Below are positions 14,007 to 37,033 of a DNA stretch of 64,000 nucleotides, piece by piece; position 1 is the first letter of the stretch; every line of letters begins with the position of its first letter. Source of the DNA: Acidobacteriota bacterium (GTDB lineage Bacteria; Acidobacteriota; Vicinamibacteria; Vicinamibacterales; UBA8438); contig WTFV01000150.1 in assembly GCA_011523845.1 (NCBI GenBank), positions 32,521-96,520 of the forward strand, read 5' to 3'. A model generated the notes under the pieces. The model saw nothing but the letters and a program-made list of their open reading frames with translations. It ran no database searches and was not told where the DNA came from. The position numbers and the translations under genes were made by a program.

Positions 14007-14747
14007 TCATGTCTTCAACACCACGACGTCCTCGTCGAGGCCCTGCCGGCAGAGCTCCAACCGCGGATGGCGGCTGACGCCACCGACGGACAGCGTCGAG
14101 CCCAGCGGGTAGAAGGACGCCCCGTCGACGAGCCCGCGCAGCGGGTATTCCCGGCGACCGCTGCTCAGCAGACCGGCTTCCAGCAACCACGGGCCGACCG
14201 CATCACCGGACGCGACGACCTTCTCCGCAGGCGAGAAGACTCCCCGGCGCCTCGTCTCCACGAGAACGCCCCACTCGACGCACGATCGGACGACCCGCTG
14301 CACGGCGCGCGCCACCGTGGTCCGCTCGCCCCAGGACTCGGCCATGCGCCGTGCGATCTGCGACAGGGCGGCGCTTCCCTGGAGGGCCAGCAGCCGGCCG
14401 GTGGTCGCCGCCACGTCGCGGAAGAACGGATAGGTCGCCAGGCACATGCCCCAGTGCAGCGGGAGCCGATCGCGTCCGGTTCGGCCGGCCAGCAGGGTGA
14501 GTGCGTCGTCGCGAAGCGGCACCGCGACGTCAGGCACGGCCATCCAGACGTGCAGCAGCACGGTCATGGTCTTGCCCCGCGCGCTGTGGGGGCCGTCGCC
14601 GGCCACCTGCCCGTCGAGAAGCCGTGCGACCTGCGCCCGGGTCTCCGCCGCGGACAGCCCCTGGGCCGTCCACTCGGCCGTCGCGTCCAGCCAGTCCAGG
14701 CGGATCTTCCGGTCGAACCCGATGATGCGGCGCGTCGTCCCGGACAT
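14007..14747 (-). CDS. BREX-associated protein, BrxA-like by position (terminal gene of type 3 loci); function not verified
   Basis: 246-aa ORF from MSGTTRRIIGFDRKIRLDWLDATAEW... Its start overlaps the pglZ stop (TGATG, 1-nt overlap at 14747). Helical, no motif I can name with certainty. Confidence 0.6.
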   Translation of the reverse strand: MSGTTRRIIGFDRKIRLDWLDATAEWTAQGLSAAETRAQVARLLDGQVAGDGPHSARGKTMTVLLHVWMAVPDVAVPLRDDALTLLAGRTGRDRLPLHWGMCLATYPFFRDVAATTGRLLALQGSAALSQIARRMAESWGERTTVARAVQRVVRSCVEWGVLVETRRRGVFSPAEKVVASGDAVGPWLLEAGLLSSGRREYPLRGLVDGASFYPLGSTLSVGGVSRHPRLELCRQGLDEDVVVLKT

Positions 14748-16759
14748 CACGCCCGCTCGATCTCGACGAAGGGCACGACGACCTCCTCCAGGGTGATGCC
14801 CCCATGGGCCACCGGGCGTTCCGACTCGCGAACGAATGATTGGCGCCCGGGGGCCAGCAGCGCCAGGTAGCCCTCCGGCAGCCCGCTCGCCGGCCATTCG
14901 AGCGCATTCGGATAACGCTCCGCCACCCGCGAGCGCAGGGCGGGATCGGAGAAGATGCGCACGCGCTGGGCGCGCAGATCCGCCACCGAGCCCTCCTTCG
15001 GCGCGCCGCAACCGCGCGTTTCGACGTTCCCGTGGTCCGAGGTGAGGAAGACAGTGAATCCGCTGTCGAACAGCGTGTCGAGCAGCGCGGCCAGCATGCC
15101 GCCGCGGGTCCACTGGCGGATCTGGTTGTGCATCCCGCCGCTTCCGAGGGTCATGCCATGCATGATTCGATCCACGGCGTCGACCACCAGCCCGATCACG
15201 CGGACCCTGGGGTGCGACACGCGCTCCTCGACGGCGCCAAGGTCCGATCGTTCGCGCAGGTTCTTCGCGTAGACCACCGCGACCGGGTCCAGTCCCTCGT
15301 CTCCCCAGAACCGCCTCCACGCCGCCGGCTCGCGGTCGGTGGTGTCGATGCTGCCGGCGAAGTAGAATGGCGGACGCCCCGCGAAACACGCCTGCCGGGA
15401 GACCATGGTCAGCGTGGGAATCCAGGCGAAGAGGCTGTCCTCCCGGAACCGCAATTCGGGTTGCTGCTGCGCCAGCACCTCGCGGACCGCCAGCCACTGG
15501 TCGAGGGCGAGACCGTCCATCACGACCAGCGCGGCCTTGGCGCCCGTGGACTCGTGCAGGCGCCGCGCGAGCACCCGTGGAATCTGGTGAATCATCACCG
15601 GCGGCGAGGGCGGCAGATTGTGCAACGTCTCGAAGCGCTGCCGGACCCACGCCGTGAACGCCTCGTCGATCCGGCCGCGGACGCGGTCGTACCGGACCGG
15701 CGCGCCACCGTCTCCGTTGACGACGTCCGTGTCGGCCTGGAAAACCAGTGCGTTCACCTGCGCCCAGCGCGGTGCGAACGCGAGCCAGTCCTGGTGCGGC
15801 GCTGCGTCGTCCGGCATCGACGTCTCGACGGATGCCAGCAGCCGGTCGAGCCGGCGCGCCCGGTCGGCCCCCGGGTCGATCGCGATGCCCGCCCGCGCCC
15901 AGGACTCGGCGACATCCTGTCCGCGGGGATGCGCAATCGGCCGGAGCGCGCCTTCCAGGAACAGGTTGTCGATGTAGATCCGCACGTCGCTGTCGTCGAA
16001 CGGAATCCGGGCCGGACCGGAGAACGCCAGCCCGTAGTCCGCTACCGTCTCGCGCGCCGCGACCGTGGCGGACGCCGGCGCATCCAGAAAGACCGGCCAG
16101 CGCTCCTGCAGGAACGCGAAGAACGCCTCGCGGTCGGAGACCAACCGCGCCAGGGGCCACTGTGCGAACATCGGGTCCCGCCGCAGCACCAGAACGAGGT
16201 GGCCTTCCAGATCCGGCGGCAGGCGGAGTCTCCTGTAGTGGCGCCGCAGCAGGAAGCGGAGCAGGTCCGACGCCTGCCTGATCCTCTCCGGTGCGACCCC
16301 GAACACGTGCCGCAGAATGAACCCCCGGGTCTGCGACTCGCCGAGCGGTCGGCCGGGCGGTTCCCGAACCTGTGCCGCATGAAGGGCATCGAGATCGCCG
16401 CGGTCCAACGCGCTGACGACCGGACCGCTGAGGCGGGGGAACAGATCGCCGAGGCTGAACGAGAGCCGGCGCGCCGCCTGCAACACGTCGTAGGGAATCG
16501 CGTCCAGGTTCGATGCTTCGCCCCGGAGCACGACGACCAGGTCCGCAAGACCCCCGCGATCACGGCGCGATCGGTAGCGCGACTCGTAGAAGAAGCGGAA
16601 AGCGATGCGGTCCTCGAACGAGGTCACCTGGAAGCCGCGCGCCCGGAGTGTCTCCAGGATGCCCGCCTCCAAGAGCAGGCCGTCGGGATCCGCCGCGATC
16701 GTGAGGCGTGCGACTCCCGGCGTGAACTCCCGCAGGATGTCATCGCGCCAGCCGGCCAC
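14747..16759 (-). CDS. pglZ: BREX alkaline-phosphatase-superfamily protein PglZ
   Basis: 670 aa. N-terminus MAGWRDDILREF..RLTIAADPDGLL, PglZ core VVMDGLALDQW and FLTSDHGNVE. Confidence 0.85.
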   Translation of the reverse strand: MAGWRDDILREFTPGVARLTIAADPDGLLLEAGILETLRARGFQVTSFEDRIAFRFFYESRYRSRRDRGGLADLVVVLRGEASNLDAIPYDVLQAARRLSFSLGDLFPRLSGPVVSALDRGDLDALHAAQVREPPGRPLGESQTRGFILRHVFGVAPERIRQASDLLRFLLRRHYRRLRLPPDLEGHLVLVLRRDPMFAQWPLARLVSDREAFFAFLQERWPVFLDAPASATVAARETVADYGLAFSGPARIPFDDSDVRIYIDNLFLEGALRPIAHPRGQDVAESWARAGIAIDPGADRARRLDRLLASVETSMPDDAAPHQDWLAFAPRWAQVNALVFQADTDVVNGDGGAPVRYDRVRGRIDEAFTAWVRQRFETLHNLPPSPPVMIHQIPRVLARRLHESTGAKAALVVMDGLALDQWLAVREVLAQQQPELRFREDSLFAWIPTLTMVSRQACFAGRPPFYFAGSIDTTDREPAAWRRFWGDEGLDPVAVVYAKNLRERSDLGAVEERVSHPRVRVIGLVVDAVDRIMHGMTLGSGGMHNQIRQWTRGGMLAALLDTLFDSGFTVFLTSDHGNVETRGCGAPKEGSVADLRAQRVRIFSDPALRSRVAERYPNALEWPASGLPEGYLALLAPGRQSFVRESERPVAHGGITLEEVVVPFVEIERA

Positions 16760-16789
16760 CGCCGCTCCTTTCCGGGACAGCGCGGCGCA

Positions 16790-18562
16790 TCAGGCCGTGT
16801 ACTCGTAGTCGAACACGCACGACGCGCCAATCATCTCGCGAAACCACAACGTGGCGCGGGCGCCCTGCGAATCCGTCAGGTGAACTGGCTCGTTCAGAAC
16901 GAAACGCACCGGCTGGGTCTGGCCGTCGTTGATGGCCACGTTGTTCGCGTAGAGGTACGTGCGATCCAGCGCATCGAGCTTCGGATTGAGCCGCCCCTGA
17001 ATGCCCGGCAGATGCCGCGTTCGGTCGGCGATGACGAGCGATCCCCCGTTCGGGGCCGGCTGCAGGCGAACCTCCAGGGGCTCGCCGGGCTGATAGTCGC
17101 GCGCCACGTGCGCCATGAATCCCGTCGCGGCGCAGAACACGGTCATCGGCAGCTTGGCGTAGAGCACGAACTCGGCCCGCCCAAAGGCATCCGTCCGCGC
17201 CTCGCGATACGTCTTGTTGGGATAGAGCATCAGCACGTCGACACCCGGCAGCGGCTGGTCCGTGTCTCCGCGCCTGACCACGACGCGAACCGCGACGCCG
17301 TCGGACACCGGCAACCGCGCCGCCGGCAGGACGACCTTCAGTTCCCGCTCGCCGATCAACGTGAAGACCGGCCGTTCGCCGGCGAGGGCGAACGTCTCGT
17401 CCTGAATGACGCCGATGCCTTCGCCGCGCCGTTCGATGAAATACTGCCGCCCGCCCGCGCCCGGCACATCGCCCACCGGGCACTGGCCCAGCCGGGACGC
17501 CAGCAGCTCGTTGCGCGTGAACTGGCTGGTGCGCAGGTCGTCGGTCGTCATCGAATTGCAGAGCCCGCCCGGCGAATACAGCTCCAGCCGATCGTCGAAC
17601 ATGAACAGGCGTATCCGCGACCCCGACACCGCGTAGTCGCGATGCACCACCGCGTTGACAACCGCCTCGAAGACCGCGCGTTCGCTGAACTGCGGGACGT
17701 CGATACGCGCCGGGTCCTTGTACGCCGCCACACGCCGATTGCGGACCACGAAGCGCACCGCCTCGCGAATCTGCTCGTCGAGCGGACCGGTGACGTCCCG
17801 CGCGTCGAGTTGCCGGCCCGCGTCCATGCGGTCGCCGCTGTAACACACGGCCTGAATCCACGCGTTCGGCAACCATTCCCGCGCGTCGTCCACGGCCAGC
17901 AGCACCCCGCCGACCGTCGCCCGCAGCGCACCGTGCCGATCGTCCTTCAGGAACTTCAGCTTGGACAACGCGATCTCGGCCGGTTCGTCCATGCGCGAGC
18001 TGACATACTGGCGCCACAGCGCCGGGCGCAAGCTGCCGATCCCGGTGTTCCGCACGACCTGCGTGTCCGTCGCAGTCGCGTCGGACTGCCCCCGCGCCTG
18101 AGACAGCCGGCGGACCTCCGCGGAATCCATCTGCCGCTTCTTGTCACCCCGCCGGCGAAAGTATCCGCCGGGAGATCGGTGCACCGTTGCACTCTCCGGA
18201 ATCTCGACGACCAGCACACCACCCTTCCCGGACCCCGGCGCCTGCACCCGGAAGATGCTGAAGTCCAGCGGCGGCTTGATGCTGTCCGAACAGATCTCCG
18301 TCACCAGATTCGCCAGTGCGTCCAGTTGCGCCGGATCGAGCGACTGCGGTTGCCTGTCGTCCGATACGCCAAGGACGAGACGGCCGCCGCGGGCGTTGGC
18401 GAACGCCGCGAACTCGTCGGCAAGATCGTCGCGCCGGGGCCCTGACACACTGCTGCCGCGGAATCGAGCTTCCTTCAGCTCGAGATCCGTGTCTTCACCG
18501 AGGGCGATCTGTTTCCACAGGCGCTGTTCTTCGATTGGCATGGCCGCCGGACCACCCAGCAT
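16790..18562 (-). CDS. AlbA_2 (Schlafen-like) + HATPase_c_4 domain protein with extra C-terminal beta-rich domains
   Basis: DLELKEARF...EFAAFANARGGRLVLGV (AlbA_2), NAVVHRDYAVSGSRIRLFMFDDRLELYSPGGL (HATPase_c_4-type), then VRVVVRRGDTDQPLPGVDVLMLY...TDAFGRAEFVL (carboxypeptidase-regulatory-like). An alternative start lies at 18541 (MPIEEQ). Confidence 0.75.
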   Translation of the reverse strand: MLGGPAAMPIEEQRLWKQIALGEDTDLELKEARFRGSSVSGPRRDDLADEFAAFANARGGRLVLGVSDDRQPQSLDPAQLDALANLVTEICSDSIKPPLDFSIFRVQAPGSGKGGVLVVEIPESATVHRSPGGYFRRRGDKKRQMDSAEVRRLSQARGQSDATATDTQVVRNTGIGSLRPALWRQYVSSRMDEPAEIALSKLKFLKDDRHGALRATVGGVLLAVDDAREWLPNAWIQAVCYSGDRMDAGRQLDARDVTGPLDEQIREAVRFVVRNRRVAAYKDPARIDVPQFSERAVFEAVVNAVVHRDYAVSGSRIRLFMFDDRLELYSPGGLCNSMTTDDLRTSQFTRNELLASRLGQCPVGDVPGAGGRQYFIERRGEGIGVIQDETFALAGERPVFTLIGERELKVVLPAARLPVSDGVAVRVVVRRGDTDQPLPGVDVLMLYPNKTYREARTDAFGRAEFVLYAKLPMTVFCAATGFMAHVARDYQPGEPLEVRLQPAPNGGSLVIADRTRHLPGIQGRLNPKLDALDRTYLYANNVAINDGQTQPVRFVLNEPVHLTDSQGARATLWFREMIGASCVFDYEYTA

Positions 18563-18686
18563 TACCGCATCGCCTCACTGAGCCAGTCTCCGACGGCACG
18601 CTGCTCCCACTCCACGTACTCGCGGGGAGTTCGCCAGAATACCCTCCAAGCCTCATTGAGCAGCAGTCGACCAGATCCCTTCGTTT
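18562..18686 (-). pseudogene. Displaced 3' end (38 codons + stop) of the HExxH gene, cut off by the IS insertion
   Basis: GC-rich in-frame tail ..TKGSGRLLLNEAWRVFWRTPREYVEWEQRAVGDWLSEAMR* with no start codon. Its TAA overlaps the ATG of the AlbA_2 gene (TAATG). It joins in frame to 22092 when 18687-22091 (3405 nt) is removed. Confidence 0.8.
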
Positions 18687-18709
18687 GGGGATTATATACC
18701 GTCCTAGCC
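18679..18709. repeat. Left target-site duplication (cttcgttt, 18679-18686) + left terminal inverted repeat (18687-18709)
   Basis: IRL is ggggattatataccgtcctagcc. The reverse complement of IRR is ggggattatataccatcctagcc (22/23 match). Confidence 0.9.
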
Positions 18710-18819
18710 TAACGCTATCTCCCGAATATGCATTAGTTTATCCTGGCTGTCGTCGAGAACGGTCAACATCGGCACATGTTCGACGCAGCGCTGTCACCGG
18801 TTGTCGAGCCGTGCTCAAT

Positions 18820-19053
18820 TCAAGATAGAATGACAATTCCCCCCCCATGTATATTTCCAGTACGGTCACCGAGGCTGAATTGAACCTTAACACAGTGACC
18901 GTCCCAACCGTTACCTTCAACCTCAACATCATCAACGGCCAGCCCAATTGGTTTCTTAATGTGTTGCACACCTGCTTTCTCTCTTTTGGGTAGGTGGAAC
19001 CCTAGCACGAGCTTTGCCAGCATGTCAAGATTTCTAGCGTGCGCAGTCAGCAC
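18820..19053 (-). CDS. Hypothetical cargo ORF (77 aa), weak
   Basis: Track ORF in the AT-rich element, divergent from 19087..19668. No recognisable motif, and a competing ORF 18738..18971 overlaps it. Confidence 0.25.
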   Translation of the reverse strand: MLTAHARNLDMLAKLVLGFHLPKREKAGVQHIKKPIGLAVDDVEVEGNGWDGHCVKVQFSLGDRTGNIHGGGIVILS

Positions 19054-19086
19054 GCCGATTGAGAACCTGGACTCACGCTACTTGTA

Positions 19087-19668
19087 ATGGACAAATTCTC
19101 AAAACTAGAGTACACTCTTGAGATGAATTTCTCTGCTTTGCCAATTCGTTGGGGTGAACTTCTCTCGACTATCCTTCCTGGTGCTTGGGCATTGACGGCC
19201 ATTCTTCCGTATTTGCCGGAATTTACGGAGTGGCTATCTCAAGGCTCTCTAGCACAGGCGATGGTTATAATTGCAGCGGCAACACTCTTGGGCGGTTCTA
19301 TTAGTGGCTTCACTCGTTTTACTTGGGAATATGGTCTTTTTGCGTTTAGTGATTTCAAAGTGAAACCACTTTCTCTAGTGGTTACTGACTCAGAGAAGAT
19401 GAAATTGTATGAGTTTTTGTTGGACAATTCTTATAAATGGGTTGGGTGTCACGCCAATACTGGGTGGGCGACACTTTTGGTTTTGTTGAGTCGACTGCAA
19501 CGCTGCCCTTCCGAATTGGGAATCATAGAACTTGCATTATCTGTTGCGGTTGTGATATTATTTACAGCTTCGTATGTCCAATGGTGGATATACGTAGACC
19601 ATATGAATACTGCATTTGGCAGCAACGGAGGAGAGCATGTTCAGGAACGTACCACAGACGGGGTCTAG
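19087..19668 (+). CDS. Hypothetical integral membrane protein (about 4 TM), IS cargo
   Basis: 193-aa ORF with hydrophobic segments LLSTILPGAWALTAILPYL, AMVIIAAATLLGGSISGF, GWATLLVLLSRL and IIELALSVAVVILFTASYVQWWIY. Confidence 0.6.
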   Translation: MDKFSKLEYTLEMNFSALPIRWGELLSTILPGAWALTAILPYLPEFTEWLSQGSLAQAMVIIAAATLLGGSISGFTRFTWEYGLFAFSDFKVKPLSLVVTDSEKMKLYEFLLDNSYKWVGCHANTGWATLLVLLSRLQRCPSELGIIELALSVAVVILFTASYVQWWIYVDHMNTAFGSNGGEHVQERTTDGV

Positions 19669-19831
19669 GATTAAGGCCATCACATCTACGAGAGAATTCA
19701 AGCTAGGTGATGAGGGTACCTTGCGGGCACCGCTGGCAGACTACTACGTAGATCGCGCCGAGGATTTATTTGAGGCTGAATTCTTCGGTCGAATCATAGT
19801 AGTTCGTCGGGGTGACGTTGAGTTGACCTAA
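19637..19831 (+). CDS. Hypothetical small protein (64 aa), IS cargo
   Basis: ATG after GGAGGAG (aacggaggagagcATG): MFRNVPQTGSRIKAITSTREFKLGDEGTLRAPL... It overlaps the end of the membrane-protein gene. Confidence 0.5.
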   Translation: MFRNVPQTGSRIKAITSTREFKLGDEGTLRAPLADYYVDRAEDLFEAEFFGRIIVVRRGDVELT

Positions 19832-19877
19832 GATTCTGAACAGGGCTAGTGCGTGGCGATCCACTGGCTCTGTTGTC

Positions 19878-20813
19878 TTACTTCGCCGGTCGTGCCGTTG
19901 AAGAAAGGCCGTTCTCTCGAATAAGGTCCTTGTACCGCAATCTCTTGTCCTCAGCCAGAAACACCATCACCTGCATCTGCTCAATCGTATCCAGCGGCCG
20001 CTGGTTGTGCCGACCCTCGAATTCCTTGACATAGCGGTCCAAGTGCTTCGGGCTCATTTTGTGGTAGACCCCAATATAGCCACGCTTCATCATGCTCCAG
20101 AATGACTCCATGCCGTTCGTATGAGCTTGCTCCCTGACGTATTCTCCCGTCGAATGAGATACAGCCTCGCGATTCGGAACACCACTGTAAGTTGTCGCTG
20201 TATCTGTGTAGACCTTGGTCCCATCTTCCACATTCTCTTGAATGAAACCTTTGAGAGTCCGACCGTCGGTATTCTCAACTACCTTCGCTCTGACCCGACC
20301 CGTCCCTCGTTCCTTCATCCCAACGACAGCCGTCTTGTTGACTGGTCCTCGACCCTCCTCCTGTTTACGCTTCCACGCGTGCTTGTTCTTCGCCTTGCCA
20401 CCGAAATACCCTTCATCTACTTCAACAGCGTTCTCAAAATCACCTGCCTCTTCGTCCCGCCAGGTCTCCCGAATCCGATGCGCCAGATGCCACGCTGTCT
20501 TTTGGGTCACGCCCAGGTCCCGATGCAACTTCATCGAGGACGTCCCCTTGAGCCCAGTTGCCAGAAGGTAGAACGCCAGCGCCCAGGTCTGGAGACCCAG
20601 GTTGGAACCCTGCATGACCGTCCCAGTCTTGACGCTGAAGTGCTTCCGGCAATCTCGACACCGATAGGGCATCGGCTTTCGATTCTCGACCTTCCGAATA
20701 TTCAGCGAGCCGCACTGCGGGCACGCTATACCGTTAGGCCAGCGTGTTTCGATGAACCACTGCTCCGCGGCTTCCTCGGTGGCGAACATGCGCACGACTT
20801 CCATCAGGGTCAT
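19878..20813 (-). CDS. IS1595-family transposase (N-terminal Zn-ribbon + ISXO2-like DDE domain)
   Basis: MTLMEVVRMFATEEAAEQWFIETRWPNGIACPQCGS...YRCRDCRKHFSVKTGTVMQGSNLGLQTWALAFYL...VEVDEGYFGG...VYTDTATTYSG...HSTGEYV...HTNGMESFWSMMKRG. The longer track ORF (to 21074) runs through the tRNA and is rejected. Confidence 0.9.
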   Translation of the reverse strand: MTLMEVVRMFATEEAAEQWFIETRWPNGIACPQCGSLNIRKVENRKPMPYRCRDCRKHFSVKTGTVMQGSNLGLQTWALAFYLLATGLKGTSSMKLHRDLGVTQKTAWHLAHRIRETWRDEEAGDFENAVEVDEGYFGGKAKNKHAWKRKQEEGRGPVNKTAVVGMKERGTGRVRAKVVENTDGRTLKGFIQENVEDGTKVYTDTATTYSGVPNREAVSHSTGEYVREQAHTNGMESFWSMMKRGYIGVYHKMSPKHLDRYVKEFEGRHNQRPLDTIEQMQVMVFLAEDKRLRYKDLIRENGLSSTARPAK

Positions 20814-20977
20814 GCCCTTGCGCCAGTGCTTGCCGGGTGCGTTTCGTGCCACTGCGAGCCTCCTAGCCAGTCTAGGGGAAAGATATCGCAGTTGACAGTC
20901 CTCGACAAGCTGTTCTGGTACAGGTTTTGCTTGACTTGCAGCGGGCGGACCGGACAGACTTCGTGGCGGTGGAGGGG

Positions 20978-21061
20978 TGTGGGCGACGGGATTCGAACCC
21001 GCAAGACCTGCTGGCCAGCGGCTTTCTAGGCCGCCGCGTATTCCAGTTCCGCCACGCCCAC
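20978..21061 (-). tRNA. Class II (long variable arm) tRNA, anticodon loop CUAGAAA = apparent anticodon AGA; Leu/Ser-type body, A73, no encoded CCA
   Basis: Hand fold: GTGGGCG-TG-GCG-GAACTGGAATA-CGC-G-GCGGC-CTAGAAA-GCCGC-TGGCCAGCAGGTCTT-GCGGG-TTCGAAT-CCCGT-CGCCCAC-A. 7-bp acceptor stem, T8, A14, G18G19, canonical T-loop. Confidence 0.65.
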
Positions 21062-21829: not shown

Positions 21830-21880
21830 TGCTTGACTTGCGTGGTAGAATGTTGGCGGTCGAAATCAGGAGGTAGTGTG

Positions 21881-22054: not shown

Positions 22055-22060
22055 TGGGTG

Positions 22061-27127: not shown

Positions 27128-27133
27128 GCGCTA

Positions 27134-27446: not shown

Positions 27447-30227
27447 CTACGCACGCTGCACGGCTGCGCGCGTCATGGCCTGGTCGTACCACATCAGCAG
27501 CTTCGGATCCTCCTGGAGCACGTCCTCCGGGATCTTGCGAGCGACCTCGACGATCGTGGCGTAGTCCCGAGCCTGCCATGCCTTGCGGAAACCGGCGCGG
27601 ATCGCTTCCAGGCGGAACAGCTTCAGGCGTCGCTCCGTGGAATGCCGGTACTCGTCGAACTCCCGGAGCAGGCCGCGGGTTCGCCACTCGTCGAGGTCGC
27701 TCGCCTTGCGGGGATCCGGGACGTACCAGCGGTCCTTCGCCTTGGCGCGAAGGGCGAACGCGTCCTTCGGCAGGTTGCGGAGCTCCTTGAAGTTGCCGGA
27801 CAGGTAGGCGTGAATCTGGCTCGGCACCTCGCCTCGGCCATCGTACCGCAGGAAGTTCTGCTCCAGGAACGCCGACAGCTCGATCATCCGCTCGTGCTTC
27901 TGCCAGCCGCCGAGCTCGCGGATGAACTGCGGATGGATCTCCTGGAAGGTCTGCGGCTTCCTCCCAAGTTGTTGGCGCAACCACTGGATGGCGGTCTCCT
28001 CGTCCCTGACGAAGAGCTCGAGCTGCACCAGTTCGCGAGCCGCCAGCCGTCTGGAATCGTACTCCACGACCTGCTCGGGCAGGAAGAACATGCCGTCCCG
28101 CTCCGGAAAGCGTTGCGTGAGCCCTTCGTGGAATTCAGTGGCAGAGAGCGGAACGGTGACACCGCGTTGCACGTGGAAGGCGACCATGCGGTCGAACAGC
28201 AGGTAGCTCTGGCGCTCGGCGATGACCTCGGCCCGCCCTTCCCTGGCCACGAATACCGGAAGCTGGCGCATGTGGGTGCTGACGAAGTCCCAGGCGCCGT
28301 CCGCGGTCCCGGCCTGCGGTCGGAAACGGTCTTCCAGCCCGCCGTTCGGCTTGTAGGCGGAGATCACCAGATCCTGCTTGACCGCGGTGCTCGTGACCTG
28401 CCGGTAGGAACCCTGCTGCTTGTCGAGCGTGCGGACGTCGGCGACCACGAAGCCGGCCGCCAGCATGGCTTCCTGGATGGCGTTCCAGATCGCATTCCTA
28501 GAGTTGTGGAAGACGACGGTGATCCACCGGCCGGGTTTTAGGACGCGACGGTACGCTTCGAAGCAGTGCTGCATCAGGCGCTGGTAATCGACGACGTCCT
28601 TACCCTTCGGCCGGTCGACGATGGCCTCGGTCTCGCTACGCGTGCGGGTGCGGTGCCAGGATTCGACGAGGTGGTTGAGGTCGGCGTAGAAGATGTTCTC
28701 TCCGAAGGGCGGATCCGTGAACACGTAGTCGACGGAGTCGTCGGGCAGGGCGTTGGCGCCGCAATCGCTGGTCGAGATCATCGCGAGATCCGGGCGCGAA
28801 ACTGTCGGCTTGAAGGCCCTTGCGAGACGCTGCAACTTGCCATCGAGAATATACCATGGACACACTTCTGCAATTTGCGAGGCCACATAGTAGACTCCCG
28901 ACAGTTGACGATTCACCTGAGAAAAGTGGGAAGGGCCGTAGCGATTCAGTACCGACATACCCCAAATTGCCTGCTCCACGAAGAACAAGAGCATGCTTCT
29001 CAATCGGTTGTCTTCGCATTCATCTACACGCCGCCACATCGCCGCCAGCACATGCGCCGCCCGCGGCAGGAACAGGTGGTGCACATGCGTGAAGCCCTTC
29101 GGCGCCAGACGCGAGCCGTGGTACATCTCGTCGATGGGAAACGCGTCGGTTGGGACCTCGGACGGCAGCGGGAGACCGGCGATGCGGTCGAGAACGCCCA
29201 GATCGGCAGAGTCCGGTTCCTTCTCGTAGCGCGCATCGCCCACGCTGTAGTTGATCAGCACGGGCCGGAGACGAATACGTTTCCACGGCCGGCCCGACGC
29301 GGGATCGGCGAGCGTTTCGAACGACCGCACGAAGTTGTTCTTGGTCAGCTTCACGGCGCAGTGCGGACAGGGAAACGTGGATCTCGTGCGCCGGGTGGCC
29401 TTGTCGAGCGCCTCGTCGAAGAACACGACTTCGCCCGCGCAGTCCGGGCAGGAGAAGACCTCGCTCCACACCGTGTAGTTGATTCGCCCCGTGGTCCGCC
29501 CGTCGGCGTGGAGCGTGTCGTACATCCAGCCGATCTCCTCTTCGACCTCCGTCAGGAGTTCGGAGGCCGCCTCGCGGAACGCGGTGACGTCGAACGGCAG
29601 GTTGTAGTTGGCGGCGATGAAGGTGGCGGCCGGCGACAGATCGCCGAGAATCACGCGGCGGGCGCCCCATGCCGGCGGGTTCCGCTCTTCCCCCTTCCAG
29701 CGTTGTTCGAGGTCCTTCCGATAGGCGGGCGGCGCCGTGCCGCACCATTGCGCGGCGACGCCGGTCATGCCGGAGCCGCAGAATCCGTCCAGAACGATGT
29801 CACCCGGTCGCGTGTAGTGGAGGATGGACGGGACGATCGCCAGGTGCGGCACCTTGGTGTGGTACCCGTGCGCCCGATAGAGAGGGTCGGTCTTGCCGGC
29901 GCTGACGTCGACGGCGAACGGCTCGCGGTGATACGGCTCGTCGGGATCGTAGTGACGGCCGTGGCGCTCGACGAACTGCGCCAGGAACGGATTCGGACAA
30001 GCCGTGTAGTACGGCGGATCGGACAGCCGCAGGATGGCATCATCATCTGCCATCGGAAAATCGGGTCGTTGCCGCAACTCGGGTAGCTTCTCCTTCAGTC
30101 GCGCCAGGAAATACTGCCGGCGCGCCTCCTCCGACTCGAAGGTCAACCCGAGGCACTCCACGCGTGCCGATTCGCCCGTCGCGGCGGACTCCGACAGGAG
30201 ATCGGGCGTCGGATTACGGCTGGCCAC
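27447..30227 (-). CDS. pglXI: BREX type 3 DNA methyltransferase PglXI-like (N6/N4 methylase family)
   Basis: 926 aa. SD70PPYY, LDGFCGSGMTG (AdoMet motif I-like), Cys4 ribbon CPDC...CPHC, and a second catalytic-type tetrapeptide FTD505PPFG. Confidence 0.75.
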   Translation of the reverse strand: MASRNPTPDLLSESAATGESARVECLGLTFESEEARRQYFLARLKEKLPELRQRPDFPMADDDAILRLSDPPYYTACPNPFLAQFVERHGRHYDPDEPYHREPFAVDVSAGKTDPLYRAHGYHTKVPHLAIVPSILHYTRPGDIVLDGFCGSGMTGVAAQWCGTAPPAYRKDLEQRWKGEERNPPAWGARRVILGDLSPAATFIAANYNLPFDVTAFREAASELLTEVEEEIGWMYDTLHADGRTTGRINYTVWSEVFSCPDCAGEVVFFDEALDKATRRTRSTFPCPHCAVKLTKNNFVRSFETLADPASGRPWKRIRLRPVLINYSVGDARYEKEPDSADLGVLDRIAGLPLPSEVPTDAFPIDEMYHGSRLAPKGFTHVHHLFLPRAAHVLAAMWRRVDECEDNRLRSMLLFFVEQAIWGMSVLNRYGPSHFSQVNRQLSGVYYVASQIAEVCPWYILDGKLQRLARAFKPTVSRPDLAMISTSDCGANALPDDSVDYVFTDPPFGENIFYADLNHLVESWHRTRTRSETEAIVDRPKGKDVVDYQRLMQHCFEAYRRVLKPGRWITVVFHNSRNAIWNAIQEAMLAAGFVVADVRTLDKQQGSYRQVTSTAVKQDLVISAYKPNGGLEDRFRPQAGTADGAWDFVSTHMRQLPVFVAREGRAEVIAERQSYLLFDRMVAFHVQRGVTVPLSATEFHEGLTQRFPERDGMFFLPEQVVEYDSRRLAARELVQLELFVRDEETAIQWLRQQLGRKPQTFQEIHPQFIRELGGWQKHERMIELSAFLEQNFLRYDGRGEVPSQIHAYLSGNFKELRNLPKDAFALRAKAKDRWYVPDPRKASDLDEWRTRGLLREFDEYRHSTERRLKLFRLEAIRAGFRKAWQARDYATIVEVARKIPEDVLQEDPKLLMWYDQAMTRAAVQRA

Positions 30228-32091
30228 GTCGTTCGTCTTCCGGCCTGCCGAGCCGGGCGGCCTTGAGCGCGGCGCCGGCTTCAGTCAGAACGTAACGCTG
30301 AGCCGCCGCCGACGGCTTGCCCGGAATCGTCATGCGCAGGATGCCGCCTTCCAGCAACGGATCGACGTGCCGTGTCTTGAAGAGGCTGCGGTCGGTCTCG
30401 CCGATCGCCGCCATGACGTTGGCGAGGCGGCGGGGGACGTCACAGAGTTCGACAATCCGCCATTGGGTCGCCGAGAGCGTGGTCAGCAGCTTCGCCGAGT
30501 CACCGGATGGCTTAGACGATATCGGACCGTCTCCTGCCGTGGACGACTCCGCAGTCGTGGAGTTGTCACGATCAGCGGCCGCGGTGGAAGGCGCCGGAAC
30601 CGAATCGCCGCCGACGTTGGCTTGCGCAAGTCGCGTACGCAGGTGGCCGGCCATGACGTATCGGTCGCCGGCGCGTTCCAGCAGCACCTGCTTGACCAAC
30701 CGGTCTGCGACCGCAGCCGCTTCCGGGCCGGAAAGACCCGTCACCGCCTTGATGTGCGAAAGCGTCAAGTGCTGCTGGCGGCACGCGAACGCGACGGTTC
30801 GGGCCTCGTCGTCCGTGAGGCGGACACCGAGCTGTCCCTGGAACAAGAGCTGTTGTTCAGAGAGCAATGCCTCCCTGTTCAGCGCCAGCTCGAAGCTCCT
30901 GCGCCGCCGGTCGCTCAAAATCTGCGGCGGCACGTGTCCCAACTGCTGCCAGTTCCGGAACACGTCGCGCAGGCCCCACCCGGCATGCTCGCTTAGACCG
31001 ATGCGACGAAACGCGAGCACGATCCGGGGATTGCGCACCTCGCGTTCGCCGGGTTCGAGCAGGTCCGTGTCCGCGGCGAATGCGTCTCCCGGGTTCCAGA
31101 AGACCGTCTGGTCCGCATAGTGCCGGATGACCGCCTTGCGCGAATGGTCGGAGTAGTCCTGATGCATGATCAGGTTGATCATCGACTCGCGAAAGGCCCG
31201 GTAGTCCGGCGGCGTGTCGTCCCGGCGCAGCGTCGCGGGATCCAGGCGGAACGGGTGCTCCGCTACTTTCTCGTACCAGTCCTCGATGAGGGAGCGCCAC
31301 GTACGGATGAGGTTCTCGTCGAGAACGACACGGTCGAACCAGCGGTCGCCCGTGTCCGCGTCATCCCGAATCGCCGTGAACCGCTGGCAGTCCACCACGG
31401 GACGCGGCAGCAGTTGCCGAAAGGCCGGATTCGTCCCGAAGATCAGAACGGCCGCGCGCGTCGGCAGCCGCCGCCCACCCTGCTCGACCAGCAGACCCAT
31501 CTCGGCCAGGAAGTCCCCGTCGGACATCGCGGCGCACGAACGGTTCCCCGGCCTTGCCTCGTACACCGCCCGGTACCAGCGGATGGTGTCCGGGTCGAAT
31601 GCCGTGGCCGGATTCAGGTCGACGGCCTGACCGTCGGGACGTTCGGCTGCCGCGTCGATCAGGAACCCGTTGCGTTCCTGGTCCGAGCAGCGCACGTCGC
31701 TGCCGCCGCTGCGCACGAAGGCGCGGCGAATGTCGCCGTTCAGGAAAACGGGCTTCTGCGACCGATGCACTTCGGGCACGTAGAAGACGAGCAGGTCCGA
31801 TTCATCGTGCTTGTGCAGATCCTCCTCGACGTCGACCACGACGCTGATCTTGTCCGGCTGCCGCAACGTCGAGAGGAACTCGTTCTGCACCTTGTCGACG
31901 TCGAGCACGCCGACGATTTCCATCTCCCGGCCGCTCTTGCGCACGCCGAACACGAGATGTCCGCCCTCCGTGTTCGCGAACGCGGAGACCGTCTCGTATG
32001 CGTCGCGAGGCACCTTGCGTCGGGCTTCCTTGAACTCGACGTCATGCCACTCGTGCTTGCGAAGCAGCTCGATCAGTTCGTCCTGCGTCAT
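30214..32091 (-). CDS. AlbA_2 + HATPase_c_4 domain protein with C-terminal winged-helix region (paralogue class of 16790..18562)
   Basis: MTQDELIELLRKHEWHDVEFKEARRKVP...VSAFANTEGGHLVFGV; NLIMHQDYSDHSRKAVIRHY. The 3' end overlaps the pglXI start by 14 nt. The track ORF N-terminal extension (to 32205) is rejected. Confidence 0.75.
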   Translation of the reverse strand: MTQDELIELLRKHEWHDVEFKEARRKVPRDAYETVSAFANTEGGHLVFGVRKSGREMEIVGVLDVDKVQNEFLSTLRQPDKISVVVDVEEDLHKHDESDLLVFYVPEVHRSQKPVFLNGDIRRAFVRSGGSDVRCSDQERNGFLIDAAAERPDGQAVDLNPATAFDPDTIRWYRAVYEARPGNRSCAAMSDGDFLAEMGLLVEQGGRRLPTRAAVLIFGTNPAFRQLLPRPVVDCQRFTAIRDDADTGDRWFDRVVLDENLIRTWRSLIEDWYEKVAEHPFRLDPATLRRDDTPPDYRAFRESMINLIMHQDYSDHSRKAVIRHYADQTVFWNPGDAFAADTDLLEPGEREVRNPRIVLAFRRIGLSEHAGWGLRDVFRNWQQLGHVPPQILSDRRRRSFELALNREALLSEQQLLFQGQLGVRLTDDEARTVAFACRQQHLTLSHIKAVTGLSGPEAAAVADRLVKQVLLERAGDRYVMAGHLRTRLAQANVGGDSVPAPSTAAADRDNSTTAESSTAGDGPISSKPSGDSAKLLTTLSATQWRIVELCDVPRRLANVMAAIGETDRSLFKTRHVDPLLEGGILRMTIPGKPSAAAQRYVLTEAGAALKAARLGRPEDERRGQP

Positions 32092-32125
32092 GCCGTCGTT
32101 CCGAGACGATTCGCATCCTGCCGGA

Positions 32126-32512
32126 TCACGCCGCCTCGACGTCGGTGCGAGCGAAGTCGTCGCCCTTGAACAGCAGCGGTTCGCCGGTGGCCTTCGCCAA
32201 CGCATAGGCGAGACAGTCGCCGAAGTTCAACGCCGCCCGATGATTGCCCTTGCCGAATCGCCGCCAGGCGCGGCGGGCGACCTCGACGTGTTCCGGCGTG
32301 ACCGGCGCCAACTCGATCTCCGCCTTGTCCAGAAACATGTCGAGTTGACGTCCCGCCGCGGCTCCCGCCCTGCCCTCGACAACCATGGTTGCTTCGAGCA
32401 GGGCGACCGCCGACATGCGCCTGGGCCACGCCGCCGAGATTGCCTGTTCGTAGTGCGTCGCGTCCGATTCGCCGAACAGGATGGCCATGATCGCCGACGT
32501 GTCGATGATCAC
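32126..32512 (-). CDS. vapC: VapC PIN-domain toxin
   Basis: MIIDTSAIMAILFGE... (PIN Asp4) ...FGDCLAYALA. GTG start overlaps the vapB stop (GTGA). Confidence 0.9.
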   Translation of the reverse strand: MIIDTSAIMAILFGESDATHYEQAISAAWPRRMSAVALLEATMVVEGRAGAAAGRQLDMFLDKAEIELAPVTPEHVEVARRAWRRFGKGNHRAALNFGDCLAYALAKATGEPLLFKGDDFARTDVEAA

Positions 32513-32769
32513 TTCGGCAGTCCCCGTTCGTCATAGAGGAGGTCTCCGTGGTCGACGGCCGAAGGTCCGGGTCCCATCAGCTTGGCGCAGCGTTGTCCGA
32601 TGGCGTGGAGCTTCTCGGCCAGCTCGTCCGCGTTGCGCAGGCGCTTCTCCCGCTCCAGACGCTCGCGCAGCGCGACGGTGACTGCACCGGTCATCGTTTC
32701 GCCGGTCAGCCGAGCGAGCTCGCGGGCCAGCCGACAGGTCTCCTCGTTCTTGATGTTGAGGCTCATCAC
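32509..32769 (-). CDS. vapB: VapB antitoxin (PSK/Rv0623-like family)
   Basis: MMSLNIKNEETCRLARELARLTGETMTGAVTVALRERLERE... It sits immediately upstream of the PIN toxin, between brxC and the AlbA_2 gene. Confidence 0.9.
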   Translation of the reverse strand: MMSLNIKNEETCRLARELARLTGETMTGAVTVALRERLEREKRLRNADELAEKLHAIGQRCAKLMGPGPSAVDHGDLLYDERGLPK

Positions 32770-32808
32770 AAGGTCCTTTGGTGGAAGATCGTAGACTCGA
32801 CGCTCCGG

Positions 32809-35800
32809 CTACTCAAGCACGATCCGTACCTTCGCGGCGTCCAGCCCTTTCGCCTTCTCGTCGACGTAGTCGCCGAACCGCTTCTTCAACTCGCCGGGCG
32901 TTGCCGGCGCGCCGCCCGGGAAGAGCGCACCGCGCAGTTCTTCGGGGTTGACGACCACCTTCGAGAAACCGGACAGCACTTGCGCGACCGCGTCGACGAA
33001 GTCGTGGTGCAGCTCGTCGGGGAGCGTTCGGGACGCGATGAACGCCTGCACGGAAACCCGCTGCGCGGAGCCGAGCAACTCCAACTGTTCACGGGTGGTC
33101 GGGTCGGCGAGGTTGGCCAGCAGGATGTCGGTCCACGCCGCCAGTAATACGTCCAGTTCGCCGTCCAGGCCGTACAGCACGTTGCCCGCCGCTACGTCCA
33201 CGGGCTCGGCCGACGGCCGGAAGGCGCAGTGGGGACACTCGGCCGCGGCGTCCAGCTCCTGCGCGGTCAGCGCGGAGCAGCTCTTGAGGGCCGTCAGCCG
33301 GCTCAGTAGGTCGTCCAGTTGTTGCCTGGGCAGCAGGTCGATCGCGGCCAGGGCCTTGAGTTTCTGCAGCCGCCCGTCCGCGAGCAGCCGGCCCTTGCGC
33401 CGATCGTGGTCGACGCCGAGCCGCGCCCGCGTGTGCAGGGCGAGGTAGGCGTCGACGTACGCGCGCTTCAGGTCGCCGAGCTCCTGCTGCGCCTGTCGGC
33501 GAAAGCCGGCGGCCGACCGCTGCACCGGATCGAGAAACCGGGCGACGAGGTCGTCCCGGACCTGCTTCAGTCTCCCTACCCACGCGTGGTCCGCAGGAAG
33601 CGCCGCCTCCGCCGCGGGGAAATACGACGCGGCGTTCGTGAAGTCCCAGACCAGCGCGTGCAAGGCTTCGACCTCCTCGAGCGCGTCCAGCCCGGTTCGT
33701 TGCGCCTCCACTTCCCGGCCGCTGTACGGGAAGTTCTTCAGGGCGCCGGGCGAGGAGAAAGCCTGCAGCGGCTCGAGGAAAGCCCTGGCCGCGTCCAGCC
33801 TGCCGCGCAGGTCACCGGTTGCGTGCTCGTCGAGGAGGTTTCGGCCCCAGAACTGAAAACCCGCCTGCAGCGCCTGCCGGGCCATCACCAGCCTGCCCAC
33901 GCGGGCGTCCACCGCCTTCTGCAGCTCCCGGACCGGCTCGTCCTTGCCCTGCGCAACGAGTTGCGCCATGCCCGGCGTCAGCGCCAGCAGCTCGAAGAGG
34001 GCCGTCAGGGCCGGGACGTCCCAGTCCTTCGGGGACTCGATGTGCTTGAAGTTCACCAGGTCGGCGAGTGGCGCGGCGGCCAGCACCGACACGTCGGTCG
34101 CATCGAACTTCCTGCCGGGAATCGCGACGACCACGTGGCCGGAATAGACGAGGCTCGCCAGCACGACGACCATCCACTCGGGCTCCAGGCGATACGTGCT
34201 CGGCGCCATGTACTCGACGTCGTGAACTGAGTGAACGAGCTCGTCGCGGTTGAGGACCTGTCCCTGTCCCTTCCGCTCCAGCAGCTCGACTATGTGCTGC
34301 GCGTAGCGCGATCGGCTCGGATCGAGCTGGTCGCCGTCGAGCAGCTCCAGTGCGTCGAGCACCTTGCTCCCCTGCTGCGTCTTCCGGGGGCCGGCGATCC
34401 AGCGCAGCGCATCCTGCACCGCCTGCGGGCGACTGCGCGTGGTCCAGTAGACCGGAAACGCGGGGTACCCCGGCGCCTCGTCCTCGAAGTGCGCGGCCAG
34501 CGCCGCGGAGCCGACGGCGTTCACGACGTCCCGCACGTTGACCTGCGCATCCTCGGTCGCCGGCTTCCCCTTCACCCACCCGACGAGCGGCTTCGTCCGT
34601 CCCTGGTGCGTCACCTCGACGGCGGTGGTCATGTGCTCCTGGAGCCACTTCGTCAGGTCGCGCAGGAAAGCGTCCGCCTTCGCCTGGTAGACGTCCTTCG
34701 CGTGCCCCGACGCACGCGACGCCAGATCCAGCGCCGCCGCGCAGCCCTTCAACGCCTGGTGGAAGGCATCGTCCCGCCCCTTGAGCCGGAAGAACACCTC
34801 GTCCGCCTTCTTCTCGTCCCGGAAGCGCGGCGGCTCGTACGGCTGGATGAAGTAGAAATAGAAATCGCGCGGCGGCACGGCCGTCGACCGCTCGTTCGGC
34901 GCGCCGAAGAAGAGGTAGCCGAGCCGGGAGGCGCGGCGCTCGCGCCATTCGAGCTCGTGTTCCCAGATCCGGTAGCCGGTGACGTACGTCGCTTCCTTGC
35001 ACTCCAGGACACGGGTGAGCGCCTCGTAGTAGTAGCGGTCGAGCTGGGCGTCGTCGAGCGATTCGGCGCGCTTGTCGATGTGCGCGTCGTAGTCCTCCGC
35101 CTTATCGAGGTCGAGGTGGTACTGGCGGTTGTCCCGATTGAACGAGATGAACTGGCCGCTGACCGTTCGATGGATCTCCCGCAGCACGGTCTCGACCTGG
35201 GAGAGCAGGTCGTCGGCCGGCTCGCCGCCGAGGTCCTCGATGCCCGGCTGGTAGAGGCACAACGTGTCGCGGAGCTCTTCCGGCGTGGCGCCCAGCGGCG
35301 CGTGGATGTTGTTGTGCGTGAGCCGGTGCACCGACAGCGCGTCGACGATCCGCAGCGCCATCGGCATGTAGGCCGGCCGCGTGAACGCCTGCGCGATGCG
35401 GGACTCCAGGACCTGACTGCAGTCGATGACCGCCTTGATCTCCGGGACGGCGCGGAACGACGGATTCTCGCGCAGCGTGCGCCAGTACGAGTCGTAGGCG
35501 ATGAGGCCGGGACGGTCGGCGGGCGGCTCGTCGTGAACGATCCGGTTCATGGCGAGGGACAGCGTCTTGAGCACCTCGCGCTTCTCGATGACCGCGATCC
35601 GCTCGAAGGTGTCGATGAAGTCCGGATGCACCGGGAAGAGCCGGACGAACTCGTCCAGCCGCTCGTTCATGTTGCCGTAGAACCGGGTGAACGGCGCCAG
35701 GTACTCCCGGATCCGCGTCTGCTGCTCGCCCGTCTTCCTGAGCAGCCGCTCGGCCACGACGTGCTTGACGTCGGCCCGTGCGATGCGGATCTGCTCGAAG

Positions 35801-36516
35801 CGGTCCTTCACCCGCCGCAGGCTGTCGGCCACGTGGTGGAACCGCGGACTGTCGAAGATCGCCTCCTGCACGCCGGCGACGAAACGGAAGCGCAGATCCT
35901 TCGATACCTCGCCGACCTCGCGCAGGAAGTTCAGGTCGAGAACCAGTTCCTGGTCCCTGCGGCTCTTCAGGTAATCGAGCAGCTCGTCCACCACCAGCAG
36001 CAGCCCCTGGTCGGGGTGCCGCGCGTGGAACGCCGCCATCATGTCCTCGAAGGCGCGCTTGTGGTTCGGGATCGTGTGCCGGGGCGGGAACCGGTAGTCG
36101 ATGCCCCAGCCCGCCAGTGCCTCTTCGAGCTGCGAGCAGACGAACTCGCGGAAGTCCATCGTCGTCGCGCCGAGCTCGGTGCGGGCAACCCGGAACCGGC
36201 CGGCGATGCGCCGGGCGGCGCCGGCGACCCGCTGGTCGATCTCGGTGAGGAGATCCGCGCGCTCGGCCAGTGCGGAGATGACCGACATCAGGTGGGACTT
36301 GCCCGTCCCGTAGTTCCCGACGACCAGGAAGCCCTTGTTGTCGGCGGGCTCGTCGATCTGGATCTGCGGGATGACGACCTCTGCCAGCCGCTCCGCCATG
36401 TCCGCGCTCACGACGTAGGTGGACACGAGCTGCCGGGCCTCCGCCTCGCGATCGGCGTCCCGGAGCTGCACCACCGTTTCGATCGGCTCGAACCGGATCA
36501 GATCCCCGTATTTCAT
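32809..36516 (-). CDS. brxC: BREX P-loop ATPase BrxC/PglY-like (about 1235 aa)
   Basis: [22 protein letters not shown]... and Walker [15 protein letters not shown] near the N-terminus. Very large alpha-helical remainder. An alternative upstream ATG at 36564 would overlap brxF by 17 nt. Confidence 0.8.
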
Positions 36517-36547
36517 TTCCGTTCCAGTGGTGTGCCGACGACCAACC

Positions 36548-37033
36548 TCATCGAGCCACGACATCCGGACGGACGATCATCAGGCCGCCGCGTGAATCGC
36601 GAGAGTACCGCTTGTGCTCCGGGTGATCCGGCGCGGCGTAGGTCAGATAGCCGTTCTCCAGCGTCCCGTTCCACGCCGCGACGATGGTGCGGTTCCGCGC
36701 TACGCCCTGCAGCAAACGAAGCGGATCCTGCTCGAACGAAACATCGAACAGGATCTCGATGTTGTCGAGCAGCACCAGCGGATCATCCCTGCCCACGACC
36801 TCGTCGAAGAGGTCAGGCATCCGAAGTACCCGCTCGCGTTCGGTCAGGTCGATCAGCCGGCGCGACAGCTCCACGTTGAGATTGACAATCCGCGCTCCCG
36901 TACTTGCCGCAACCTCCCGCAGCGCTTCGGTCTTGCCGGTCCCACTGGGAGCAGCAACGAGAATCAGCCGGTGATACAGCGCCTTTGCGCCATCGAGCTG
37001 GGCAAGCACCTTCTCCGACAGGGACTCCGGCAT
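36548..37033 (-). CDS. brxF: Small P-loop protein, BrxF-like (BREX type 3 marker)
   Basis: 161 aa. Walker [13 protein letters not shown] and Walker B-like [12 protein letters not shown]. Sits directly upstream of brxC, as in type 3 loci. Confidence 0.65.

Follow-up and report, generated by a model that had tools for sequence, protein, structure and literature searches.

A type 3 BREX locus without the helicase BrxHII, with defence modules nested in its insertion hotspots, in a Vicinamibacterales-like genome

The 64-kb window analysed here (64,000 nucleotides of contig WTFV01000150.1, assembly GCA_011523845.1, from an Acidobacteriota bacterium) carries a bacteriophage exclusion (BREX) island, the backbone of which is a bona fide type 3 BREX minus one defining feature, the helicase BrxHII. 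We consider it probable that this is a helicase-less type 3 system with defence modules in its insertion hotspots, in which BrxHII was deleted in a shared ancestor and the rest of the core was kept by selection. Here we describe the core genes, the distribution of BrxHII among related loci and the selection acting on the remaining core, weigh other explanations for the missing helicase, and then elaborate on the nested modules.

The core genes are all co-directional on the minus strand. The first, brxF (36548-37033), encodes a P-loop protein of 161 aa (PADLOC BrxF, E 8.5e-61; NCBIfam BREX_3_BrxF, 174.9 bits against a cut-off of 50). It is followed by brxC/pglY (32809-36564), encoding an ATPase of the DUF6079 type with the Walker A motif GNYGTGKSH, which is matched over its full length by PADLOC BrxC PDLC02482 and Pfam DUF6079 (both E=0); its true start is likely the Met at 36516, as homology with relatives begins at residue 17. 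The N6-adenine DNA methyltransferase encoded by pglXI (27447-30227, 926 aa; Pfam N6_N4_Mtase) is of the PglXI and not the PglX type according to its PADLOC model (PglXI PDLC02541, E=0, residues 10-921). The type 3 pglZ (14747-16759, 670 aa; PADLOC PglZ, E 5.3e-266; NCBIfam BREX_PglZ_3, 760.9 bits, cut-off 250) precedes brxA (14007-14747, 246 aa; PADLOC BrxA, E 1.8e-59), the last core gene, at the 3' end. The subtype is assigned as type 3 because the BREX_3_BrxF and BREX_PglZ_3 scores exceed their cut-offs. All five core ORFs (open reading frames) are intact, as are their motifs: Walker A in BrxF and BrxC, FCGSG and DPPF in PglXI, and SDHG in PglZ. The canonical type 3 gene list was reportedly given by Goldfarb et al. 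in 2015.

A first-pass annotation of this DNA had proposed the order brxF, brxC, vapBC, AlbA_2 gene, pglXI, Argonaute cassette, insertion sequence (IS), AlbA_2 gene, pglZ and brxA, and profile searches recovered every listed gene in its place on the minus strand, the five BREX assignments holding in PADLOC, NCBIfam and Pfam. The tight junctions that it described are likewise read from the sequence, with 14-nt overlaps at 30214-30227 and 25836-25849 and a 1-nt overlap at 14747; gaps of 30-39 nt separate BrxC from VapB, VapC from Schlafen and Schlafen from PglZ, and there are four more overlaps of 4 nt each (ATGA or GTGA).

BrxHII is absent from the window. No BrxHII-like sequence was found in the 64 kb by tblastn with four BrxHII proteins of related loci (best E 0.1), each query being confirmed by PADLOC PDLC02500 (E=0), and no PADLOC BrxHII match was found among the locus proteins. 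The tblastn search covered the whole window, including the low-GC stretch at 18.6-23.4 kb, and gave no sign of a hidden or degraded copy. Nor was another helicase found in the flanks, where each sizeable ORF scanned against Pfam proved to be a housekeeping gene. The missing helicase, also reported in the first-pass annotation, is therefore borne out across the window.

Searching one genome per species with the window PglXI yielded 45 loci, 34 of which span pglXI to pglZ; the closest, with 81-86% PglXI identity, belong to metagenome-assembled genomes of Vicinamibacterales (Acidobacteriota). Full BrxHII is encoded in 15 of the 34, in each directly upstream of pglZ. Three retain a remnant only (shortened in L008, a 126-aa fragment in L030 and a 34-aa fragment in L043), and the remaining 16 lack it. 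In a neighbour-joining tree of BrxC, PglXI and PglZ, the helicase-less loci are spread over about six separate clades. The window clusters with the helicase-less L017 and L002, and the nearby L003 and L004 retain BrxHII. A 2026 survey found BrxHII in 702 taxa, amounting to 77% of type-3 systems, and absent in 23% (PMC12839542). The lack of the helicase and the nested modules are each common in relatives and already described.

The closest backbone is that of L017, which is syntenic with the window on both flanks at 91-95% amino-acid identity (deoxyhypusine synthase, DUF4097, queC, queD, the BREX genes, rtcB, porin) and has no BrxHII, no Argonaute operon and no IS. It is collinear with the window except for a 1-kb segment, with an unknown gene of 298 aa, in place of window positions 18548-27478, where the Argonaute operon and the IS are located. 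Since L017 lacks all three, helicase loss needs no such cassette. In a tree of PglZ and BrxA, the Argonaute-bearing L046 and L047 group with L028 and L005, which are Argonaute-free and helicase-less.

The remaining core is under purifying selection, which argues against long-standing pseudogenisation. Comparison of the window with the helicase-less L017, L002 and L001, at synonymous divergence (dS) of 0.3-0.7, gave ratios of nonsynonymous to synonymous divergence (dN/dS) of 0.14-0.46 for BrxF, BrxC, PglXI, PglZ and BrxA, values that cannot separate a core that defends from one that only methylates; the flanking rtcB gave 0.18. Pairs of helicase-bearing loci gave ratios similar to those of helicase-less pairs. 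Three values were ignored as seeming alignment artefacts (BrxC in L003-L004, and PglXI in L007-L009 and L007-L038). Relaxed selection in the helicase-less loci was considered and rejected, the only sign being a small rise for PglZ.

The intervals brxC/pglXI and, chiefly, pglXI/pglZ are insertion hotspots for defence genes. The former varies from 13 to 3971 bp among the loci, and the latter from 384 bp in L035, which lacks BrxHII though the slot is empty, to 9 kb. According to PADLOC, the pglXI/pglZ slot holds SIR2-HerA in L003 and L016 (with a truncated HerA in L011), Gabija in L015, Septu PtuA in L025, Ppl in L007, IetS in L027 and a candidate OLD-type ATPase in L029, and also HEC-03 and the candidates PDC-S19, PDC-S28 and PDC-M11A; ORFs of the same size and position as the SIR2-HerA genes are present in L004 and L031. 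Where BrxHII is present, the cassette sits between pglXI and the intact helicase gene. Two Schlafen genes of the window, for proteins of 626 and 590 aa (Schlafen-626 and Schlafen-590), are part of this pattern: Schlafen-626 homologues occupy the brxC/pglXI slot of at least 11 related loci, which represent several phyla, and Schlafen-590 orthologues (79-91% identity) are found in the same slot as in the window in L012, L017, L025, L028, L047 and L048. That BREX loci have defence genes embedded in them is a general pattern, for which the term 'guilt-by-embedding' has been used (bioRxiv 10.1101/2024.01.29.577857). At least 1017 taxa have genes that combine a Schlafen RNase with a minimal histidine kinase and a winged helix-turn-helix (wHTH) in close linkage to the core loci of BREX and BREX-related systems, and PIN and PD-(D/E)XK effectors are likewise embedded in BREX loci (PMC12839542).

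The gene identities, the missing BrxHII, the hotspot pattern, the IS insertion and the purifying selection are observed here, and enzymatic activities and current expression are inferred. The SNF2 helicase BrxHII would have been deleted in an ancestor common to the window and related loci without it, and selection still maintains the other five core genes. The hotspots contain vapBC and a Schlafen-histidine-kinase-wHTH gene between brxC and pglXI, and a self-contained five-gene PliAgo-type operon, bearing its own promoter-like site, and a second Schlafen-histidine-kinase gene between pglXI and pglZ. Later, a foreign, low-GC element of the IS1595 family entered the last gene of the Argonaute operon, cutting off the conserved C-terminus of its product and separating Schlafen-590, pglZ and brxA from everything upstream. 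In the predicted mechanism, PglXI would mark host DNA by N6-adenine methylation, and incoming DNA without the mark would be the target of BrxC, PglZ, BrxA and BrxF. RNA-cleaving back-up effectors would be provided by the Schlafen proteins and VapC, and a separate guide-dependent layer by the Argonaute and its nuclease. These layers would run in parallel, none of them replacing the helicase.

Several points weigh against this interpretation. The literature searched includes no experimentally characterised type 3 BREX, whether BrxHII is present or not, so that activity of the helicase-less core is argued from sequence conservation. In E. coli and Acinetobacter, type 1 BREX does not defend without its motor BrxL (PMC12839542), and a helicase-less type 3 system could therefore methylate without restricting. 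The dN/dS of PglZ is somewhat higher in helicase-less than in helicase-bearing pairs (0.23-0.46 vs 0.12-0.27), and the IS may block or reduce transcription of Schlafen-590, pglZ and brxA. The sample of loci was seeded from the window's own PglXI, which biases the helicase-less figure of about 50%; the trees are rough, being neighbour-joining only, and recombination is evident. BrxHII may also be encoded elsewhere in the genome. Some of these points would fit a decaying or methylation-only remnant, in which the core no longer restricts phage and at most methylates, the locus has become a landing pad and the IS represents further decay. We regard such a remnant as rather unlikely. It would agree with findings on some type 1 systems, where BrxL, which has been proposed to correspond functionally to BrxHII, is required in defence and not in methylation (PMC12839542), with the BrxHII remnants of L008, L030 and L043 as deletions in progress, with the clearly decayed relative L046, with the slightly raised dN/dS of PglZ, and with the parting of pglZ and brxA from the upstream genes by an IS that has a terminator-like site inside it. 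However, the five core ORFs are intact with all the motifs listed above, and dN/dS is well below 1 in three helicase-less comparisons at appreciable dS. Moreover, BrxL is dispensable for defence in Salmonella BREX and absent from about one quarter of type 1 systems (PMC12839542), and the IS, with its perfect target duplications, looks very recent and is thus uninformative on the long-term state of the locus.

The first-pass annotation had rightly described a type 3 backbone without BrxHII, expanded by nested modules, but neither of the two explanations it offered, substitution of the helicase by other modules or its loss on acquisition of the cassette, is supported by the related loci. Functional substitution, whereby the Schlafen-histidine-kinase proteins or the Argonaute operon took over the role of BrxHII as integrated parts of BREX, appears very unlikely to us. 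Schlafen-type genes are somewhat commoner in helicase-less loci (13/16 vs 8/15 in helicase-bearing loci), a weak trend that is not significant (Fisher p = 0.14, uncorrected for shared ancestry) and for which an anticorrelation of Schlafen genes with BrxHII was rejected. Other features in keeping with substitution are that, in the sampled Vicinamibacterales loci, the Schlafen-590 type is found in the pglXI/pglZ slot only where BrxHII is absent, that the Argonaute operon occupies this slot in four helicase-less loci (the window and L046-L048) and, until the IS arrived, overlapped Schlafen-590 by 1 nt, and that the nested genes are all co-directional with the core. Yet Schlafen genes and BrxHII occur together in L004, L023, L034 and L038, and L029, L032 and L035 lack both; the slot holds unrelated autonomous systems in relatives, often beside an intact BrxHII, and is empty in L035. 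No helicase domain is present in the Schlafen proteins (what Pfam labels 'RecG C-terminal' is a GHKL-type ATPase-like fold), and the Schlafens of bacteria are tRNA nucleases that act as stand-alone defences (PMC13056530). The Argonaute operon is unchanged outside BREX (L050-L054), and its four BREX-embedded copies come from related genomes. A broader proposal, that type 3 BREX lacking the helicase is functional, not a remnant, and in Vicinamibacterales has entered a stable partnership with a five-gene PliAgo-type operon, inserted at one constant slot and in translational coupling with Schlafen-590, pglZ and brxA, with the embedded RNA- or DNA-cleaving effectors supplying the step that BrxHII normally supports, seems to us quite improbable. 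Loss by cassette insertion, i.e. a single event in which BrxHII was deleted and the Argonaute cassette or the IS acquired, is extremely unlikely. The cassette does fill the interval that normally holds BrxHII, and the star-like backbone trees leave the order of events in the window's own lineage not fully resolvable. Against such an event, L017 and L002 of the same clade have neither helicase nor cassette, the Argonaute-bearing L047 groups with L028 and L005, which have none, all three being helicase-less, the IS is a clean cut-and-duplicate event inside another gene without any deletion, and loci that keep BrxHII carry cassettes next to it with the helicase undamaged.

The locus is an ordinary, if elaborate, example of a described type, and its nested modules are independent defence units in hotspots. 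It exemplifies three things published before: no BREX core gene is more dispensable than that of the motor or helicase, BREX operons act as landing pads for other defence systems, and Schlafen-type nucleases are regular passengers. If it is true that helicase-less type 3 BREX defends, BrxHII would be accessory and not core to the mechanism.

The Argonaute operon lies downstream of pglXI on the minus strand. A promoter-like site (27134-27162; TTGACA-17-CATGAT with a TG extension, 10/12 matches, a consensus match only) is located directly upstream, in a 319-nt gap, and across it the 11-mer GCGCTTGACAT occurs twice in tandem (27134-27165, minus strand), upstream of the helix-turn-helix (HTH) gene; this repeat may be an operator. 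The first gene (26774-27127) encodes an XRE-family HTH regulator of 117 aa (Pfam HTH_31, HTH_3), and the second (25836-26777) a Cas4-like PD-(D/E)XK nuclease of 313 aa (PADLOC Aga_Cas4-like_Nuc, E 1.6e-112; Pfam PDDEXK_1). The third (23459-25849) encodes a full-length prokaryotic Argonaute (pAgo) of 796 aa that belongs to the PliAgo group (PADLOC pAgo_II, E 4e-271). It is followed by a partner gene for a 121-aa protein (23097-23462), found after pAgo in all nine homologous cassettes and without a family match above threshold, and by a partner gene with an HExxH motif (22063-23100), which is truncated by the IS and now encodes 345 aa compared with 377 aa before; its severed 3' end is at 18562-18686, where its stop overlaps the next start by 1 nt (junction TAATG). 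Homologues of the 377-aa protein are 376-390 aa in length, with an invariant HELxH and a conserved C-terminus. Neither the 121-aa nor the ~377-aa partner matches a Pfam, NCBIfam, PADLOC or PDB sequence family, the latter also in a profile search of PDB sequences. The combination of an HExxH protein with an XRE-type HTH presumably resembles the protease-repressor switches of the ImmA/ImmR kind, which is speculation on our part.

The closest solved structure to the pAgo is PDB 7R8F-K (E 4e-143; about 45% identity over the full length, as estimated from the alignment), which we take to be PliAgo, also from the tetrad numbering in PMC9360449. In the alignment to 7R8F/7R8K, the DEDD tetrad and the equivalents of the group-specific lysines K565 and K759 are conserved (GVDVKNN, RQKE, HRDGR, IKLND), including a group-specific Lys that adjoins the first Asp, the roles of the tetrad and lysine residues being those described in PMC9360449.

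Nine homologous cassettes (L046-L054), with pAgo identity from 91% to 48%, have the HTH, nuclease, pAgo, 121-aa and ~377-aa genes in one order. Those of L046, L047 and L048 are located in the same slot of type 3 BREX and are followed by Schlafen-590 and pglZ, and five (L050-L054) are in unrelated contexts. The Argonaute operon is thus an autonomous, mobile unit, its five genes being conserved together inside and outside BREX. In L049 (1-13934; HTH not called, 65% pAgo identity), it is directly downstream of a DUF499 ATPase-methyltransferase-PLD-SNF2 helicase system; DUF499-centred systems are related to type 3 BREX (2026 survey, PMC12839542). L046 (1-8300) is at the same chromosomal site, with rtcB downstream, and keeps an intact Argonaute operon in a decayed BREX. 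Of its BrxC only the last 161 residues remain, beside a pair of transposase genes; its PglXI is broken into two ORFs, and its Schlafen-590, which has an internal deletion, precedes a PemK toxin gene. The 8,226-bp metagenome scaffold L048 has the order PglZ C-terminus, brxA, Argonaute operon, Schlafen-590 and PglZ N-terminus, which could represent a tandem pair of loci or an assembly artefact. The occurrence of an active-type (PliAgo-group) Argonaute operon as a type 3 BREX passenger, in four related loci, is mildly new: neither this nor the two uncharacterised genes that always trail the pAgo was found in the literature searched, and the word 'Argonaute' is absent from the BREX survey (PMC12839542).

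The IS1595-family element (18687-22083; 3,397 bp, ~52-55% G+C) has 23-nt terminal inverted repeats that are 96% complementary and is flanked by perfectly matching 8-bp target-site duplications CTTCGTTT (18679-18686 and 22084-22091). A target duplication of 8 bp is typical of the IS1595 family. The element encodes a transposase (19878-20816, minus strand; Pfam DDE_Tnp_IS1595, E 2.3e-38, and Zn_ribbon_IS1595), a hydrophobic-rich protein of 193 aa without a family match (19087-19668, plus strand) and, just upstream of the transposase gene, a tRNA-Ser(AGA) with A34 and a long variable arm (20976-21061, minus strand); the stretch 21100-22060, about 1 kb, has no convincing ORF. In bacteria, A34 is seldom found in tRNAs other than tRNA-Arg, and an IS does not usually carry a tRNA as cargo. 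The tRNA adjoins Schlafen-type genes, whose relatives cleave tRNAs, which may be a coincidence. In silico removal of the IS restores the 377-aa ORF, with its stop overlapping the Schlafen-590 ATG by one base as in L048. The IS thus damages one gene of the Argonaute operon, replacing the last 37 residues of the HExxH protein, conserved positions included, by five residues encoded by the IS end. The insertion is clean and probably recent. As to its origin, blastn of a plasmid collection gave only a 70-bp match.

Between brxC and pglXI, a vapB-type antitoxin gene (32509-32769, minus strand; 86 aa, Pfam PSK_trans_fac, E 1.5e-27) overlaps by 4 nt with the gene of a VapC PIN toxin (32126-32512, minus strand; 128 aa, Pfam PIN, E 4.6e-17); VapC is this 128-aa ORF and not one of 148 aa in another frame. 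Schlafen-626 follows (30214-32094, minus strand), a Schlafen(AlbA_2)-histidine-kinase-like-wHTH protein (Pfam SLFN_AlbA_2, HATPase_c_4, Fic-like_C). Schlafen-590 (16790-18562, minus strand) has the Schlafen(AlbA_2) and histidine-kinase-like domains with an Ig-like C-terminal domain (Pfam SLFN_AlbA_2, HATPase_c_4, weak CarboxypepD_reg). An orphan second vapB-type antitoxin gene (13687-13944, minus strand; Pfam PSK_trans_fac, E 1.1e-25) lies downstream of brxA, toward rtcB, and has ~75% DNA identity to the L017 counterpart of the BREX-internal vapB; no vapC-sized ORF was noticed beside it, no direct search for one being made. In L001, L004 and L031, vapB(C) and a Schlafen gene are located downstream of brxA (at 17388-18767, 21966-22594 and 23281-24056, respectively) and not between brxC and pglXI. 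The comparison suggests that vapB(C)-Schlafen modules were shuffled by recombination, because the L001 Schlafen copy is closer to the N-terminal 235 residues of the 626-aa window Schlafen (95% identical) than is the syntenic L017 copy (77%). A separate observation concerns pglXI itself, the frame of which is broken by ~1.27 kb near residues 410-478 in L025 (11212-12499), L031 (11362-12626) and L032 (11386-12667); the interrupting sequence may represent an insertion or intron-like element.

The island is chromosomal, in a Vicinamibacterales-like genome, and lies between rtcB (12249-13844) and queD (37385-37861). The window has ~71% G+C, falling to 52-66% at roughly 17-37 kb. Its other sizeable ORFs are housekeeping genes by Pfam, including those for arginine and purine biosynthesis, queC, deoxyhypusine synthase, glycosyltransferases, a two-component system and a CoA-transferase. 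No integrase was found in the window, and an Rfam scan of it gave nothing beyond the tRNA inside the IS. A plus-strand ORF of 204 aa (36614-37228), antisense to brxF, was treated as spurious.

Compared with known systems, the window shares five of the six core genes of type 3 BREX (brxF-brxC-pglXI-brxHII-pglZ-brxA, surveyed in PMC12839542) in canonical order and orientation, but lacks BrxHII and has an operon expanded from ~13 kb to 23 kb through nested genes. Like type 1 BREX with its embedded BrxU/GmrSD and PARIS, and like BREX loci with auxiliary or back-up effectors (PMC12839542), it has nested, co-directional, self-contained modules in the core operon, and its Schlafen-histidine-kinase-wHTH, PIN and PD-(D/E)XK genes are of types listed as BREX-embedded effectors in that survey. 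The antitoxin gene overlapping a PIN-domain toxin gene is a feature of VapBC toxin-antitoxin systems. Both Schlafens have the domain order of pSlfn-HisKinase and pSlfn-HisKinase-HTH, the two commonest prokaryotic Schlafen architectures (34% and 19%), most of which are near defence genes (PMC13056530); the prokaryotic Schlafens tested in that study are from Enterobacterales, and phage-triggered tRNA cleavage is shown for bacterial Schlafens other than the window pair (PMC13056530). The pairing of an Argonaute with a PD-(D/E)XK nuclease is shared with BPAN, in which a long-B Argonaute and a nuclease mediate abortive infection (PMC10620215). Assignment to this group, suggested by the PADLOC 'class II' label, was rejected: BPAN Argonautes are inactive and encoded upstream of the nuclease, whereas the window pAgo is PliAgo-like in the PDB comparison, with its DEDD tetrad intact and the nuclease upstream. 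Argonautes of the PliAgo group cleave RNA with DNA guides, and their genes are accompanied by that of an HTH regulator and, upstream, that of a Cas4-like nuclease (PMC9360449). The window has the same regulator and an immediately upstream PD-(D/E)XK nuclease, and DNA-guided RNA cleavage is predicted here by analogy; it differs from the described PliAgo group in that the pAgo is trailed by two more conserved genes, for the 121-aa protein and the 377-aa protein with HELxH.

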